From a virus (Duplodnaviria; Caudoviricetes), in IMG/VR virus record IMGVR_UViG_3300033480_000006, positions 1-43,691 of that record: a stretch of 43,691 nt of DNA, one strand, 5' to 3'. Below are positions 4,835 to 39,063 of this stretch, one piece after another. Made by a program: the position numbers and the translations under genes. How positions within the stretch are numbered: the stretch's first letter is position 1; each line of letters begins with the position of its first letter. Below the pieces are notes generated by a model. The model had not been told where the DNA came from. It searched no databases and saw nothing but the letters and a program-made list of their open reading frames with translations.

Positions 4835-5034
4835 GCGACATCGCCGACGACGCAGACGGCCCAGCCGAAGCCTTCAACAAGGCGGCGCTGTGCCAGAAGA
4901 AACCCGAGGGCCCGAAGTACACTGGCTTCTGCGCGAACTGCGGTGAAGCCCTGGCGCCGCCGTTGCGGTGGTGCGACAAGGCGTGCATGGACGATGAACA
5001 GGCTCGGGTGGCCAAGGACTTCCGTGGAAACTAA
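4831..5034 (+). CDS. TraR/DksA-like C4 zinc-finger protein
   Basis: N-terminal MSDIADDA (DxxDxA) and CANC-x10-CDKAC; ATGA-coupled start. Confidence 0.7.
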   Translation: MSDIADDADGPAEAFNKAALCQKKPEGPKYTGFCANCGEALAPPLRWCDKACMDDEQARVAKDFRGN

Positions 5035-5515
5035 AACTTGCAACCGATGTGGTGAGAACAAATCGGTGTTGAATTTCGGAAATAGGGCGGCGGCGCTAGA
5101 CGGAAAAGACTGGAGTTGTATAACCTGCAGTCGGGAATACTACTCTCGATATCGGGAAGCTAACCGTGAAAGGGAAAACGCCAGACAACTTCAATGGGCC
5201 GCGGCCAATTGGACTAAACGGGTTGTCACGCACGCTAGAAGCAGAGCTAAGCGACTAGGTATTCCATGCGACATATCCTTCGAGGATATTGACCAACCAG
5301 CGAAATGCCCGATTTTAGGAATCGAACTTGACTATCGACGAGGCGGGCGAAAGAATCGGGATAACGCGCCTTCACTGGACAGAGTGGACCCGAAGCGAGG
5401 TTACGTAAAGGGTAATGTCCAAGTAATAAGCCAACGTGCTAACCGGATTAAAAATGACGCAACTCCCGAGGAGCTAAGAAAAGTTGCGGACTACATGGAG
5501 ATTCTATGGAGCTAA
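5024..5515 (+). CDS. Free-standing HNH-family endonuclease with N-terminal Zn finger
   Basis: GTG start with AAGGA SD; CNRC...CITC; CPILG...PSLDRVDPKRGYVKGNVQVISQRANRIKN; visibly lower GC than its neighbours. Confidence 0.85.
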   Translation: METKTCNRCGENKSVLNFGNRAAALDGKDWSCITCSREYYSRYREANRERENARQLQWAAANWTKRVVTHARSRAKRLGIPCDISFEDIDQPAKCPILGIELDYRRGGRKNRDNAPSLDRVDPKRGYVKGNVQVISQRANRIKNDATPEELRKVADYMEILWS

Positions 5516-7656
5516 ACATTAGGGATCTCGCACGGCAATTGGGGTCGGCCGGGTTTTACGTTTTTCCGATAAAACAAAATAGTAAGCTACCCGCGATAAC
5601 TGATTGGCCAAACGCGGCGGTGACGGGAGCGGAGGTTGAGAAGTGGGACTGGGCGGGTAACGTTGGCATTGCCACGGGGAAATTCGGCAACGGGAAAGCC
5701 TTAGTGACAATCGACATAGACAACAAGCACGGTAAGTTCGGCGATTGCAGCCTGCTTGAGCTCGAACTGCAAGGCTTCGATTTCCCTCTGACCATGGAGC
5801 AGGAAACCCCGAGTGGAGGAAGGCACCTCATCTATGTTTGCGACACACCACTTAAGCAGGGCGTGGACGTGCTGGGCAAAGGCCTGGACATCCGCAGCCG
5901 CGGCGGTTACATCGTGGGCCCCGGGAGCGAGATCGACGGTCGTGCCTACACTCTTACTCGTCGCGTGCCACCTGCTCCTGCGCCTGCTTGGCTGGTCGCT
6001 CGTCTTGGCGCTGCGCCTGATCGTCCCGCTGCTGATGTTCAGCCTCTTGCTGGTGTGGACCCTGGGCGCGCACACGGACGCGCAGTTGAGTACCTCAAGA
6101 CGGCGCCGATCGCAACCGAAGGAGACGGAGGAGATCTGACCACGTACAAGGTCGCCGCCAAGCTCAAGGATCTGGGGCTGACGGAGGATCAGGCGTTTAA
6201 GCTGATGGTCGATCACTGGAACGACCGCTGCGATCCTCCGTGGGGTTGGACCGACATCGCAGACAAAATCGACCATGCCTACCGTTACGGCAAAGAACCG
6301 CCTGGCGTGGCCGCCCCCGAGGCCGTGTTCTCCACCGGCGCGCCGCCGGCCGACGAGGACACCGGCGAGCACCCTGCCGATGTGTTGAACAAGGAATTCG
6401 CCTTCATCAAGCGCGGCGCCTTTGTGCTGCAGGAAACGACGGACGAGAAGGGGCGCGAGGTGACGGAGCACTTGTCGCCCAACGACATGCACGCCTGGTT
6501 CGCCAACAAGACCATCCAGGTGGGGGAGAAGCGCATCCCGCTATCCAAGATCTGGATGACGCGCACCTCGCGCCGCGAGTACGACGCTGTTGTGTTTGCA
6601 CCACAGCAAGACCCGGGCCCCCGCTGGTACAACCTGTGGCGTGGATTCAGCGTGGCGCCGGCCGACAGCGCCGATCACCCAGCGGTATCCGCGTTCCTCG
6701 ATCACGCGCTCAACAACGTGTGTGGCGGCGACAAGGAGCATTGCCGCTGGCTGCTGGGCTACTTCGCCCACATGATACAGAAGCCCTGGGAGAAACCGCT
6801 TGTGGCCCTGGTGTTCAAAGGCAAGAAGGGCGTGGGCAAGAACGCACTGGTCGAACGTGTCGGCCAGTTGCTGGGCCAACACTTCATGGTGGCCGACGAT
6901 GAGCGCTACCTGCTGGGCAACTTCAACTCCCACCTGGAATCCAACCTGTTCTTCGTGCTGGACGAGGCGAGCTGGGCCGGCGACAAGCGCGCTGAGGGCA
7001 AGCTCAAGGGACTGGTGACTGGCGCCAGCCACACCATCGAGCGCAAAGGGTCCGAGCCCTACAAGGTCGACAACCTCACCCGCGTGGCCATCATCGGCAA
7101 TGAGAAGTGGCTGGTGCCCGCCAGCACGGACGAGCGCCGATTCGCGGTGTTCAATGTGGGGGATGGCCGCCGGCAGGATCGCAAGTTCTTCGAGGACATG
7201 CGCGTCGGCATGGAACGTGGGGGCTACGCCCATTTGCTGCGCTTCCTGCTGGACTTCGACATCAGCGACATCGACATCAACGGCGCGCCGAATACACAGG
7301 GCCTGACCGAGCAGAAGCACGCCAGCCTGGAGCCCGTGGCGGAATGGTGGCTGGACTGCATCGGCAGCAACCAACTGGTCGGCAGTGACTGGGAAGGCAG
7401 CCTGCCACCCCTGGTGCCCACCAACCGCATGCGCCAGGCATTCGAGCACTGGGCGCGCGGGCGCAACATCCGCAGCCGGCTGCCCGGCCGCAACGACTTC
7501 ATGAAGGCCCTGGTCGAGATGGCGCCGGCCATGCCCAAGGTAAAGGCCCGGCCCGAGGACCCCGAAGATGCCACATACAGCTGGCGAAGTCCGGGGCTGG
7601 AGACGCTGCGCGCGAACTGGGAAGCCTACATAGGTGGGCCGGTGGATTGGACATAG
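5506..7656 (+). CDS. Bifunctional primase-polymerase (Prim-Pol) fused to a D5/SF3-like helicase
   Basis: VFPI..NSKLP, NVGIATG, IDID, TPSGGRHL, DIRSRGGYIVGPGS; Walker A GKKGVGKN, Walker B FVLDE, ERRF. Confidence 0.93.
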   Translation: MELNIRDLARQLGSAGFYVFPIKQNSKLPAITDWPNAAVTGAEVEKWDWAGNVGIATGKFGNGKALVTIDIDNKHGKFGDCSLLELELQGFDFPLTMEQETPSGGRHLIYVCDTPLKQGVDVLGKGLDIRSRGGYIVGPGSEIDGRAYTLTRRVPPAPAPAWLVARLGAAPDRPAADVQPLAGVDPGRAHGRAVEYLKTAPIATEGDGGDLTTYKVAAKLKDLGLTEDQAFKLMVDHWNDRCDPPWGWTDIADKIDHAYRYGKEPPGVAAPEAVFSTGAPPADEDTGEHPADVLNKEFAFIKRGAFVLQETTDEKGREVTEHLSPNDMHAWFANKTIQVGEKRIPLSKIWMTRTSRREYDAVVFAPQQDPGPRWYNLWRGFSVAPADSADHPAVSAFLDHALNNVCGGDKEHCRWLLGYFAHMIQKPWEKPLVALVFKGKKGVGKNALVERVGQLLGQHFMVADDERYLLGNFNSHLESNLFFVLDEASWAGDKRAEGKLKGLVTGASHTIERKGSEPYKVDNLTRVAIIGNEKWLVPASTDERRFAVFNVGDGRRQDRKFFEDMRVGMERGGYAHLLRFLLDFDISDIDINGAPNTQGLTEQKHASLEPVAEWWLDCIGSNQLVGSDWEGSLPPLVPTNRMRQAFEHWARGRNIRSRLPGRNDFMKALVEMAPAMPKVKARPEDPEDATYSWRSPGLETLRANWEAYIGGPVDWT
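5834..6139 (+). CDS. Putative overprinted membrane protein in the +1 frame of the primase gene (start uncertain: ATG 5834 or GTG 5942)
   Basis: About 40-aa Leu/Val-rich stretch plus an RRRR tail; primase-frame codons are abnormally T-ending over this stretch. Confidence 0.5.
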   Translation: MFATHHLSRAWTCWAKAWTSAAAAVTSWAPGARSTVVPTLLLVACHLLLRLLGWSLVLALRLIVPLLMFSLLLVWTLGAHTDAQLSTSRRRRSQPKETEEI

Positions 7657-12966: not shown

Positions 12967-15702
12967 TTACGTCACCTTTGTTACTGTTACCCTGGCCTTC
13001 CAGTTGTATGTCGCAACGCCACCAGAGTTAACTGTTATGACAACCCCGTTTCCTCCATCAACTCCCAAGGCGTATACACCAGCAAATCCGGCGCTTGCAA
13101 TGGCGACATCAACGTCAACCGCTCCTTGGATAGTTGCAACACCCGCCGCGTCTCGGTAAAAGAGGCCGGTAACAACGTATCCGGCTCTCTCAGCTGACGT
13201 GGAAAGTTTGCCGGAGATTTCAGCCTTCACAAGATAGGCGGACTCATCGTCCAGGTTTTGCGTCCACAAAACAACATTGGCGGCGCTTGTGGAATTTACC
13301 TTGGTAACGATCGGACCCGACGAACTGATGTTTGCAAGACTTGTGTAGTCTCCGTTGGTTCCGCTGAGTGTCGCTTCGGTAGGCCATTCCGTGATGACGC
13401 CAGTTGCACGCACAGCGGTATCAGAAGCCCCTGTGAACTTAGCAGACCCGCGAACTTTAACAGTAGACCCAGCAACGGAGTTGAAGAGGCCATACGACAT
13501 CTTCGTGTTTGCGTCAGTCACATCAGGGTCGAACAATTCGACGCTTGCGCTTGCGCTGGCGATGCGTATGCCGGCCTCTCCAACCGCTGCAGTAGAACAT
13601 GGCTCCCTCAAAACCGGATGAATGCGAATTCCGGATGACGTTGTAGCAGTCACCAAGATGCCATCGGATGTCATGTCCTTGGCGTACACATCAATATCGC
13701 ACTCGGTGACATTTGCGCCTTGGATGTAAACCGCAGTACCGCCTGTTCTCAAATTGAGATCACAGCGAAGATCGGTAACCTTGCCGTTGATCGATAGGCC
13801 ATAACCGTAGCCATTTGCATTACCGGAAAGTGTTAGGTCTCCAAGACTGCCCGTACCAACCGTTGCTATCTCGAACAGAGAGTTTCCGATGTTTTGAGCG
13901 ATAACACCTGTTGCACTGATGCCAGACACGTCTAGGTTTGCGTCTGCGCTTTGCACCTTCACGGCTGATAGATTAACGTTTGTGACAATCGGATTGACGA
14001 TAGCCACGTTACCTGCTTGCATGTAGAAAGCGTGCTGTCCAGTGATGTCGTGGATATCTGCGGAAACGATCTGCGTTGCTTGATTCGATACAGCTACGCC
14101 CAATTGAGCTTCTTTCAGAATGCCTTGGGCCACCCCTGAAATATCCGGGCAAATGATCTGAACATCATCAGCAGCCCCATACGTCGAATCATTGCTGATA
14201 TACACACCATTCTGGAAATTCCCATTAGCAGGAATTGGCGCGCTATACAGATTCGTCCCCTCAATGATTGGGTAGGCAATCTTAATTGACGAACCGCCAA
14301 CGATTTCAACACCGGCAGAGGCACAGTTCTTTGTGTGCGGGAACGTCGCTCCAGAGTTGGTGCATCCGATGAAACCAATCGCCCTATCAGTGTGACCAGA
14401 GTTTCCAGTCCATGCTGCTGACCAAGAGCCCTCTCCATATAGCACTGCTCCACCACAATGCACCCAAACACTATCTTTTGAGGTGGCTTTAAAGATTCTC
14501 TTGTTCGCTGTGTACTGCCGAATTTCGACCTTCGAACTCATGAAGATGGTTTGGTTTGACCGAAGCACAAGCTCATCGGTGATCTTGTATTTACCGTCAG
14601 CAATCCAGCCCGAATCACAGGCGTCGAGAAACGCTTGCAGTGCAGTGGTGCAATCCACAAGTTGCGTCCCAGCTCTAATATCCGCAACCTGAGCAGAAGA
14701 CATGAACCACATGGAACTAGCTGGCCCATCAAAATCACGCTCCCAGACTCTGGCAGAAGCGTCTACGATGTAGGTTCCCCCATTATCTGCTTGAGCCCCT
14801 CCACGCCTTTTGAACGTGCCGGAAATACCAGCGTCCGTCAAACGCACGCCTGTAGCACTCCCCGTATATGCACGCAGTGCTATGTAGTTGGCCAGGGGCT
14901 TGGCCTGGGCCAGCACCTCGTCGGCGAAGGCGCCGTCCCAGGCCACCGCGTTCGCGTCCATCGAATTCACGGTGCGCGACATCGAGAAGTTCTGCACCAA
15001 GATGTTGTCACTGCCCGTGACGGGCGCCGTGGTGAAGGTGAGCGTGGTATTGGCCACGCTGAAATCCACACCAGGCCGCTGGGCCACGCCGCCGATGGAC
15101 ACGATCAGGCCGGCCGAGCTGCCCGGGGCGCCGCTCAAGGTGAACGCCACCGTCGCACCGTCGCCGCTGAAGGTCTGTGTCTGCGGAGAGAATGTAACCG
15201 CCACCGCGGACAAGTCGCCCACAGTGGGCTCGCCATTGGCGTCCCAGTACCACACCTTGTTGCGGCGGGTTTCAAGGCTGGGAACGAACTCGGACGGGCT
15301 GCCCGCTTCATTCTCAGGGTACTTGAACGACCGGTCGACCTGCTCCTGGTACTGCTGATCGATCATGGTCAGCTTGTCCAGCGCCGTCTCGTGCGATTCG
15401 GCGGGGAAGGCATCGTTGGCCACGTAATCGGTCAACTGCGTCAACGGAACGTTGCGCAAGATCGAGATGCGGTGATCGGACGTGGGCGCGATCAGCATCG
15501 TCAGCGTGCCGCCACTGGCTCCGCCGGCGCCGGCCACAGTGTAGTCAGTGGTGATCGCCAGGGTCGAAGAGACGCCGGTGCTGATGACCGTGCGGATGAC
15601 CTTGATGTGCGCGTTGTCCAGAAATCGGAAACCGATCGTGAACGCAGTCGTCACGCCATTGCCGGTGTAGTCGTTGCGCAGAGTGGTGGTGCTGACGGTC
15701 AT
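12967..15702 (-). CDS. Tailspike / tail fibre with T7 gp17-like N-terminal anchor and beta-helix (depolymerase-like) body
   Basis: YTGNGVTTAFTIGFRFL anchor, FSGDGATVAFTL second domain, DCTTALQAFLD..GKYKI beta-helix entry, Gly/Ser/Asn-rich rungs. Confidence 0.88.
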   Translation of the reverse strand: MTVSTTTLRNDYTGNGVTTAFTIGFRFLDNAHIKVIRTVISTGVSSTLAITTDYTVAGAGGASGGTLTMLIAPTSDHRISILRNVPLTQLTDYVANDAFPAESHETALDKLTMIDQQYQEQVDRSFKYPENEAGSPSEFVPSLETRRNKVWYWDANGEPTVGDLSAVAVTFSPQTQTFSGDGATVAFTLSGAPGSSAGLIVSIGGVAQRPGVDFSVANTTLTFTTAPVTGSDNILVQNFSMSRTVNSMDANAVAWDGAFADEVLAQAKPLANYIALRAYTGSATGVRLTDAGISGTFKRRGGAQADNGGTYIVDASARVWERDFDGPASSMWFMSSAQVADIRAGTQLVDCTTALQAFLDACDSGWIADGKYKITDELVLRSNQTIFMSSKVEIRQYTANKRIFKATSKDSVWVHCGGAVLYGEGSWSAAWTGNSGHTDRAIGFIGCTNSGATFPHTKNCASAGVEIVGGSSIKIAYPIIEGTNLYSAPIPANGNFQNGVYISNDSTYGAADDVQIICPDISGVAQGILKEAQLGVAVSNQATQIVSADIHDITGQHAFYMQAGNVAIVNPIVTNVNLSAVKVQSADANLDVSGISATGVIAQNIGNSLFEIATVGTGSLGDLTLSGNANGYGYGLSINGKVTDLRCDLNLRTGGTAVYIQGANVTECDIDVYAKDMTSDGILVTATTSSGIRIHPVLREPCSTAAVGEAGIRIASASASVELFDPDVTDANTKMSYGLFNSVAGSTVKVRGSAKFTGASDTAVRATGVITEWPTEATLSGTNGDYTSLANISSSGPIVTKVNSTSAANVVLWTQNLDDESAYLVKAEISGKLSTSAERAGYVVTGLFYRDAAGVATIQGAVDVDVAIASAGFAGVYALGVDGGNGVVITVNSGGVATYNWKARVTVTKVT

Positions 15703-35085: not shown

Positions 35086-35286
35086 ATGAACGTCTACCTC
35101 ACTCTCCTTCTGAAATACGCCATATCGGCGGTGATACTCGCTTGGTTGGTGGGGCTGGTCAAAGGTTGGCACAAAGACGGTTTCTCCGGCGCGTTTCAGT
35201 CCAGCCTCTACTACGCCATAACGGTCGTGCTCTCCCTGGCCGCTTTGGGCTGCGCTGTGCTGGGTCTAGCGTTCGTTTTCAGCTGA
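35086..35286 (+). CDS. Small 2-TM membrane protein
   Basis: AAGGA SD; two hydrophobic helices. Confidence 0.75.
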   Translation: MNVYLTLLLKYAISAVILAWLVGLVKGWHKDGFSGAFQSSLYYAITVVLSLAALGCAVLGLAFVFS

Positions 35287-37787: not shown

Positions 37788-37996
37788 ACTGCCACTACTG
37801 CGGCACCAGCAAAGACTTGCGCCCGTACGGTCCGGGTCATTCGATGGTGTGCTTTGACTGCGCCATGTCCACACCGGAAAGACGCGAAGAAACAAAGCGT
37901 AATTTCGCGGCCCAGTTGGATGCGATCGACGGCCCAGCCGTCATCGGCTCTGAGCAAGGTCCTTACCCGTTGAGGAATCACAGGAGCACTTCATGA
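37784..37996 (+). CDS. Zn-finger protein (CHYC...LRPYGP...CFDC)
   Basis: AAGGA SD; ATGA overlaps. Confidence 0.75.
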   Translation: MNCHYCGTSKDLRPYGPGHSMVCFDCAMSTPERREETKRNFAAQLDAIDGPAVIGSEQGPYPLRNHRSTS

Positions 37997-38151
37997 ACCA
38001 ATTCCCTCTCGAACGCTGGGCCAGCAAGTCCCCCGGCCGCTGGATCCTGGTGATGTGCCTCCTGTTCGCTCTGTTCATCCTCGCGTCGGCCATCGCGCCG
38101 CAGGAGGAGATGGGGGAAGAGCCGGTCATTGAATCTCAAACCACTGAATAG
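37993..38151 (+). CDS. Small single-TM protein (52 aa)
   Basis: AGGAG SD; WILVMCLLFALFILASAIA; acidic tail. Confidence 0.65.
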   Translation: MNQFPLERWASKSPGRWILVMCLLFALFILASAIAPQEEMGEEPVIESQTTE

Positions 38152-38435: not shown

Positions 38436-38839
38436 CCGCCATGCCTGACCTCTTCTGCTGCATCGCTGCTGTCGGCCTGCACCTGGCCAGCGCCCACATC
38501 GATCCCGCGCCCTGGCTACAGGAGCGCGGCGTCAACAACGTCAACCCCGGCGTCGAGGTGGAGTTCACCAGCGGTGCCACGTTCGGCGCCTACAGGAACA
38601 CGCTGAATGGCACTAGCCTCTACGCTGGATACATGCATCACTTCCCGGCCATGCTGCGCGTGCATCCAGTCCTCCAGGCAGGCCTGGTCACGTACGAAGG
38701 CCGCCCCTATGCCGCAGCACTCGCCGGTGCGCAATTCCCCTTGACAAACACCTGGGACGCGCGCATCGTATACGTCCCCAAGATCGACATCACCGGCGCG
38801 CATGTGCTGCACTTGCTGGCAATCAGGAGATTCAAATGA
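38432..38839 (+). CDS. Small outer-membrane beta-barrel-like protein (PagP-like pattern)
   Basis: LHLASAH..NNVNPG..GAYRNT..SLYAGY..AGLVTY; alternating amphipathic strands; penultimate Phe. Confidence 0.6.
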   Translation: MTAMPDLFCCIAAVGLHLASAHIDPAPWLQERGVNNVNPGVEVEFTSGATFGAYRNTLNGTSLYAGYMHHFPAMLRVHPVLQAGLVTYEGRPYAAALAGAQFPLTNTWDARIVYVPKIDITGAHVLHLLAIRRFK

Positions 38840-39063
38840 ACGACCCCCTCGCTCTCGTCATCCTCTGGTGCGCTGGCATTGCCGTGCTGTACATCCTGCT
38901 GCTATGGCTGGTGTGCGAGTATGGTGACGGTGTCCTGCGCGCCCTTCTCTACAGCCCCGAAGAACTCGCTGAATACGAGGCATACGTGGCCATCGAGAAA
39001 GCGGACAAGGACGTCGCCAAGAAACTCCGCGCCGCGGGGAAGGAGATACGCCGTGAGCACTGA
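38836..39063 (+). CDS. Single-TM membrane protein (75 aa)
   Basis: AGGAG SD; hydrophobic N-terminus. Confidence 0.7.
   Translation: MNDPLALVILWCAGIAVLYILLLWLVCEYGDGVLRALLYSPEELAEYEAYVAIEKADKDVAKKLRAAGKEIRREH

Follow-up and report, generated by a model that had tools for sequence, protein, structure and literature searches.

Fully nested, well-supported genes of tailed phages are best known from lysis cassettes. By analogy, the closest designs to the overprinted gene described here would be gene E of phiX174 and the lysis genes (Sgls) embedded in rep of leviviral phages. phiX174 is an ssDNA phage and its E is a lysis gene with an N-terminal helix, while leviviral phages have ssRNA genomes and are not known to have a holin-endolysin system. 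The D/E passages of one paper describe how third-position T of the host gene becomes second-position T in E, giving a Leu-rich membrane helix (PMC8227390). For the Sgls, the rep passages of another report a +1 frame, an internal Shine-Dalgarno (SD) site and start, a predicted TM, a location in a poorly conserved stretch, and gain and loss among relatives (PMC7693330). Our +1 ORF shows the same conversion of third-position T (T3) to second-position T as E, but unlike E it places its predicted helix at the C-terminus, behind an apparently dispensable leader, and belongs to a tailed phage that encodes a separate holin; no match in sequence to E was found. It shares its design with the rep-embedded Sgls, genes for which lysis has been shown.

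T7 gp4 is of the DnaG/DnaB type. In the annotation table for T3-like phages, a 51-aa ORF and gp4.2 overlap the primase-helicase gene (PMC4925675). The initial annotation of our locus drew a parallel to T7 genes 4.1 and 4.2, and the likeness, small ORFs overlapping a primase-helicase gene, stands; since the host gene here is a Prim-Pol/DUF5906 primase-helicase and not of the gp4 type, it is an analogy only, and the +1 ORF gave no PHROG match to either protein. phi29 p1 and p16.7 come from free-standing genes and have functional soluble domains. One article describes them as small proteins from the replication region with ties to FtsZ or to replication at the membrane (PMC11476376). Unlike theirs, the soluble part of the product considered here appears unconstrained. 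Lastly, T4 Imm and HK97 gp15 are small inner-membrane exclusion proteins with one or two helices, accessory and little conserved in sequence. Neither is known to be overprinted, unlike our ORF, and homology to superinfection-exclusion families was found neither in PHROGs (window and relatives) nor in Pfam (window ORF).

The host gene and its hydrophobic +1 frame

The DNA analysed here (the window) is a whole virus record of 43.7 kb; it carries an integrase, a lysis block and structural genes of podovirus type. The phage is a temperate podophage that has Ralstonia phages DU_RP_II, RpY1 and C22 among its relatives. The host gene product matches phrog_1156 DNA primase (E 1.5e-72), PF09250 (Prim-Pol) over aa 14-162 (E 2e-25) and PF19263 (DUF5906) over aa 437-545; among cultured phages its closest relatives are found in DU_RP_II, C22 and RpY1 (54-61% identity). 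The lysis genes include a holin (phrog_1356, E 2e-17) and two weak Rz-like spanin matches (E ~1e-3), and PHROGs named no endolysin in the window.

Some observations on the genome and its relatives stand apart from the overlap. In GenBank, this primase-helicase carries the label 'integrase' in DU_RP_II and RpY1 (L021:4007-6175, L023:4034-6184), as do several of its Vibrio phage matches. One homolog (L106/L060) lies on a 41,861-bp scaffold of an Ensifer adhaerens assembly, and its primase DNA is 97% identical to that of Ralstonia phage RpY1 over aa 200-700, which points either to a wide host range or to a stray phage contig. The tail fibre gene at 12967-15702 has a T3 of 0.25 versus about 0.1 and atypical codon usage, consistent with recent acquisition. 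Small, strongly hydrophobic ORFs without a PHROG match are present in a plus-strand region (35086-35286, 37993-38151 and 38836-39063).

Within the primase gene, 25 of 40 codons at 5941-6060 end in T, versus 2 of 40 at 6841-6960. Our recount agreed exactly with the initial annotation, whose +1 translation of 5834..6139, with its RRRR stretch and acidic end, was likewise reproduced. Its placement in the primase linker was right in that the linker is covered, but the T-rich stretch also takes in the C-terminal ~17 residues of Prim-Pol (aa 14-162). As only 1 of the 40 codons at 5941-6060 ends in A, the bias does not reflect general AT-richness. None of 5000 synonymous shuffles that kept the primase protein reached the observed T3 (best 40-codon count 15 versus an observed maximum of 26), and 19-residue +1 hydropathy peaked at 2.06 in the shuffled genes, below the 2.68 of the real one. 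This T3 window of 26 ranks top among all predicted genes of at least 60 aa in the window, the next reaching 21; the genome-wide codon preference is for C/G endings. Scored with the genome's own usage, codon log-odds over 5942-6070 are +0.09 in the +1 frame versus -0.29 in the primase frame.

The hydrophobic span of 48 aa (peak hydropathy 2.68) exceeds the 19 residues taken as the minimum for a helix, and is predicted to form one long or two short membrane helices. AlphaFold2 modelled a helix at ORF aa 40-93 (pLDDT 88-98 over aa 41-90), a single long helix that cannot settle the choice between one helix and a hairpin.

Homologs, start site and constraint

Is this +1 frame kept in related primases? 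From 199 loci, 171 covered primase aa 60-270; with the window added and sequences more than 97% identical removed, 127 homologs were compared. We called membrane type those with a +1 hydropathy peak of at least 1.7 at aa 135-205, a definition for which 30 of the 127 qualify; a 41%-GC locus with its peak in a short separate frame (L077) was left out, leaving 29, which group into 24 clusters when their linkers are compared at 80% nucleotide identity. The membrane feature is missing from roughly three quarters of the homologs. The hydrophobic +1 segment occurs in 30 of 127 homologs versus 0.7±0.8 in 300 synonymous shuffles, the family start with an ORF of at least 95 aa in 57 versus 4.4±2.0 (maximum 11 in 300 rounds), and segment, start and long ORF together in 26 versus 0.01, contrasts that overstate significance because the homologs are related and the cut-offs (1.7 and 95 aa) were set after data inspection, yet that are large. 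The deficit of +1 stops at aa 81-134 in the 29 membrane-type sequences (1 versus 44.3 expected) is a test independent of how the group was picked; in the flanks of this stretch, stops match expectation (41 versus 41.2 and 68 versus 70.3). Over aa 81-190, the +1 frame is stop-free in 26 of the 29, the other four alternative frames in 0, 9, 0 and 0. T at primase third positions amounts to 0.48 versus 0.09 in the membrane type, with neither A nor positions 1-2 raised.

Because of the stop deficit (1 versus 44) and the start at codon 78-80 in 27 of 29, we regard the +1 ORF as almost certainly a conserved overprinted gene family of about 120 aa. The initial annotation had pointed to homologous primases as the place where its proposal could be checked: T3 bias and an open hydrophobic frame are kept in 29 of the 127, and the idea of a real overprinted +1 gene with one or two predicted membrane helices has held up. 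The ~120-aa version is present in the cultured relatives DU_RP_II, RpY1 and C22, unannotated in their GenBank records.

An in-frame +1 ATG or GTG at primase codon 78-80 occurs in 80 of the 127 homologs versus 56±5 by shuffling. The two membrane-type exceptions are the window and L031, the latter having an ATG about 8-10 codons earlier. Among long-ORF family starts, 52 of 59 reach -4.5 or better in pairing to the 16S tail, in most cases with a spacing of 5-7 nt, a count that has no shuffle control and that concerns an SD-like motif overlapping conserved primase residues, in a K/G-rich loop that is purine-rich anyway. No internal promoter-like site was found inside the primase, and the sequencing runs listed for this sequence included no RNA dataset, which speaks neither for nor against translation.

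In the membrane type, the hydrophobic span measures 19-48 residues (83 in one) and is C-terminal or nearly so; in most relatives the ORF ends at primase codon 194-199, and one member (L054) has an early stop. The RRRR stretch and acidic end are not a family feature, since 19 of the 26 long relatives end at most 4 residues after the hydrophobic span. Synonymous change in the overlap is 0.32-0.38 (0.33-0.38 in the leader) versus 0.30-0.34 elsewhere (14 pairs), i.e. without a drop, and leader residues are mostly near expectation. At the level of sequence comparison, the leader is kept open and not otherwise constrained, and only hydrophobicity is conserved.

A further set of about 21 homologs, selected by visual inspection, uses this frame for a different, soluble Cys-rich protein of 102-129 aa (two longer) with CC, C and HPC motifs (L174:1730-2047, L092:1724-2041, L062:1742-2056 and about 18 more), all but one of them from the same start as the membrane type (codon 78-80). 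Its Cys and His residues are near-invariant beyond what the primase demands (e.g. H in 20 of 21 versus 3 expected), a comparison that is partly circular. Synonymous change in this overlap is 0.13-0.15 versus 0.23-0.30 (9 pairs), 18 control pairs showing no such decrease, and these substitution patterns make dual-coding constraint on the Cys-rich type clear. The protein has three predicted beta strands. Its model was of low confidence (pLDDT 53), and Foldseek returned nothing for it at E<=0.001 from viral or PDB libraries. Gene callers have already predicted the protein on short contigs without naming it; a profile search returned 5 such unnamed proteins, two of them identical to products of loci in our homolog set.

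A tree built on primase aa 9-275, a range that contains the overlap, places every one of the 29 membrane-type sequences in a single clade of 62 (support 0.965), and several lineages nested in it lack the ORF. The helicase tree groups the 29 differently, so that the primase-helicase genes are mosaic. An exact 23-mer found no closer relatives among viral contigs (0 matches); a protein search of viral contigs gave 5 loci at 36-61% identity, of which the two that were new and full-length (L202, L203; outside the 127) are without the ORF. An association with integrase was considered and dropped: the gene is present in 6 of 8 near-complete membrane-type records and 4 of 4 without the ORF, and, counting all records, most of them fragments, in 15 of 22 membrane-type, 0 of 9 Cys-rich (mostly fragments as well) and 7 of 19 no-ORF records, which does not separate carriers from non-carriers.

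Elsewhere in the gene, a second +1 stop deficit lies at 6796-6945 (primase aa 431-480), with 147 stops versus 257 expected in the 127 homologs and, for aa 421-480 of the membrane group, 35 versus 54. Several close pairs show near-zero synonymous change over aa 431-480, where there is possibly another overlapping element.

The overprinted products matched no PHROGs and the window ORF no Pfam family; the membrane-type profile matched 0 of 6023 candidates. The ESM Atlas also gave no match for the overprinted products, a blank that shows neither novelty nor absence. A literature search, mostly of non-subscription papers, returned no description of this primase overlap, and the main text of a data paper on a fourth Ralstonia relative contains neither 'primase' nor 'overlap' (PMC13452375). 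Judging from these comparisons, the overprinted gene family is real and apparently undescribed, with the window as a shortened membrane-type member.

The copy in the window

In frame and position, the window ORF matches the family ORF open over primase aa 81-190. Since the family start is absent and a TGA lies upstream (Table 1), the window cannot make the long form; its product would be a shorter one, with ATG 5834 as the most likely start.

Table 1. Positions of the overprinted ORF, its candidate signals and the surrounding genes in the window
Feature	Position	Strand	Remarks
HNH-like endonuclease, overlaps primase start	4943..5515	+	phrog_3322 endonuclease, E 1.2e-36
Primase-helicase (Prim-Pol + helicase), 716 aa	5506..7656	+	PF09250, PF19263, phrog_1156
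Position of family start (primase codons 78-80), absent here: TCG GCG ATT	5738..5746	+	
+1-frame TGA cutting off the family N-terminal leader	5789..5791	+	sole +1 stop at aa 81-134 among the 29
Alternative start GTG (108 aa)	5813..5815	+	pairing -5.2 at 13 nt
Shine-Dalgarno-like GGAGGAAGG, 10 nt before ATG 5834	5815..5823	+	duplex energy -7.3
Overprinted +1 ORF, 101 aa from ATG 5834	5834..6139	+	open frame; most likely start here
Hydrophobic segment, ORF aa 34-81 (48 aa), predicted membrane helix or helices	5933..6076	+	hydropathy windows >=1.6
Alternative start GTG (65 aa)	5942..5944	+	pairing -5.7 at 9 nt
Basic-then-acidic tail and TGA	6077..6139	+	not conserved in family

The SD-like site that the initial annotation had placed before ATG 5834 is indeed present, with its GGAGG core 14 nt away, and its pairing is the best of the candidate starts (median -5.3 for 23 other window genes). 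The start itself fared less simply: the frame is open there, but the family start is at codon 78-80 and ATG 5834 is at best its replacement. GTG 5942, named as an alternative, is in frame, as is GTG 5813, which had been overlooked. The SD-like site is made of the rare codons GGA GGA AGG (GGA 7%, AGG 4%), and ATG 5834 requires the rare primase codon TAT (17%); GGAGG at this place together with ATG at codon 110 is found in 3 of the 127 homologs, window included. Support for ATG 5834 is modest, because the window is exceptional in its family and the +1 frame stays open by chance in 8.6% of shuffles over aa 110-145 (1.2% over aa 97-145). The leader looks dispensable, since L128 also has an early +1 stop and, immediately ahead of its helix, a new ATG behind a new SD-like site, from which a 49-aa product would be made.

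A near-identical variant contig from another run shows at most one difference from the window among the 276 positions of 5789-6064, 9 among the 121 of 6065-6185 and 36 among the 695 downstream. The low-change tract suggests dual-coding constraint, or could be a recent recombination tract, mosaicism being common here. Between 6065 and 6135 the variant alters 5 of the 7 +1 codons hit; since it changes five tail-side residues and most relatives stop before the tail, RRRR and the acidic end look incidental. Upstream of 5713 the variant contig is unlike the window, which suggests a recombination breakpoint just before the family start site. In the same region (4943-5713), the HNH-like gene overlaps the primase start, and A/T endings are raised in the first primase codons.

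Could the family gene be real and the window's copy an untranslated relic? The window has no ATG or GTG at codon 78-80, carries the only upstream +1 stop among the 29 and has also lost the usual family stop, and the divergence of the variant contig upstream of 5713 places recombination beside the start region. Against a relic, its T3 fraction of 0.53 is among the strongest in the family (range 0.28-0.61) and runs counter to the C/G-ending preference of the genome, the SD and ATG at 5815-5836 are built from rare codons, the variant contig shows at most one change in 276 nt, and aa 97-145 are open in few shuffles. We consider decay distinctly unlikely, and from these sequence signals the window's copy is probably translated.

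Proposed action on the host envelope and alternatives

Our tentative reading is that 5834-6139 is likely translated from the replication mRNA into an accessory inner-membrane protein acting on the host envelope, with a block of superinfection or inhibition of a membrane protein as the most plausible activities. For the family, the proposed route is internal initiation within the Prim-Pol gene, where the K-G-x-K-x-G-D loop of the primase (codon 78-80) provides a purine-rich site; ribosomes starting there would make a low-constraint leader of ~75-90 aa followed by a C-terminal hydrophobic helix encoded over a variable domain boundary. In the window, where the family start is lost, re-initiation at ATG 5834 would take its place. 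One helix or a hairpin may hold the product in the inner membrane, and the helix itself would act on the host envelope, through superinfection exclusion or inhibition of a membrane protein. Here we infer translation, membrane insertion, the choice of start in the window and the host-directed function. The helix, and not a soluble surface, would carry the function, because the leader shows no synonymous drop and its residues are near expectation; host-envelope action appears likely because there is no conserved soluble surface, the gene is dispensable across lineages and a holin is encoded elsewhere.

The main rival is a toxic or lysis-modulating membrane protein similar to the Sgls (a cell-wall-synthesis inhibitor, antiholin or permeabiliser). 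The combination of SD, transmembrane segment, +1 frame and a poorly conserved part of a replication gene corresponds to that described in the Sgl passages of PMC7693330, T3-to-Leu conversion is as in the D/E account of PMC8227390, and the sequence specificity of the helix is low. However, the window has its own holin and spanin-like genes (phrog_1356 and the two Rz-like matches), so that the product does not stand as a sole lysis function; early lysis from within the replication block, where the ORF sits, would carry a cost, and the ORF is absent from several nested lineages. We judge this reading unlikely, if less so than decay of the window's copy.

The initial annotation had offered an exclusion factor or a toxin, both of them still candidates, and also a membrane tether of the replisome. 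A product of the phi29 p1 or p16.7 kind, holding replisome or phage DNA at the membrane, would profit from the co-transcription with the primase that the overlap forces, and would fit a C-terminal helix joined to an N-terminal soluble part; the p1-FtsZ association and the organisation of membrane-associated replication by p16.7, as given in the pertinent section of PMC11476376, provide a precedent. Yet the leader that should bind the partner is without amino-acid constraint, so that a conserved soluble domain is lacking; it is truncated in 2 of 29 (window and L128), and many close relatives that have the same primase lack the ORF. A tether is thus disfavoured and appears quite improbable. Since only hydrophobicity is conserved and the ORF is absent from nested lineages, an accessory host-membrane factor is favoured over it.

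A membrane-anchored Prim-Pol fusion, made by programmed +1 frameshifting close to where the Prim-Pol domain ends, would account for the helix beginning at the C-terminal boundary of that domain (aa ~146-162) and would rescue the window's copy without a start of its own. Such a frameshift needs neither ~80 open upstream codons nor a conserved start, yet both are kept, and among the patterns tested no common slippery motif was found at aa 135-170 of the 29 sequences; we regard it as very unlikely. Least credible is a nucleic-acid signal (origin, RNA structure or antisense gene) as the source of the T3 bias, with the hydrophobic ORF as a by-product: origins inside replication genes are known and a 39-aa antisense ORF lies at 5954-6073, but T is raised at position 3 only (0.48 versus 0.09) and not A or positions 1-2, only 10 of the 29 sequences keep the antisense frame free of stops over aa 160-190, only short two-copy repeats and no Rfam match were found, and the upstream stop avoidance would be left unexplained.

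Returning to the accessory envelope-directed protein, the membrane and Cys-rich types together allow a broader, if rather unlikely, picture, in which the internal Prim-Pol start would be a long-lived gene nursery of tailed phages that has yielded, through one +1 frame, two functional proteins unrelated to each other: a Cys/His-rich beta protein in one lineage and, in another, a tail-anchored, Sgl-like inhibitor of a host envelope target in a holin-bearing dsDNA phage. With two proteins from one start site, and gain and loss along the tree, de novo gene birth may be traceable here. The overprinted gene sits in a core replication gene and is conserved across at least 24 divergent sequence clusters. 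Since small phages have overprinted membrane proteins that turned out to inhibit targets in the envelope, the new family would offer a cheap and testable lead.
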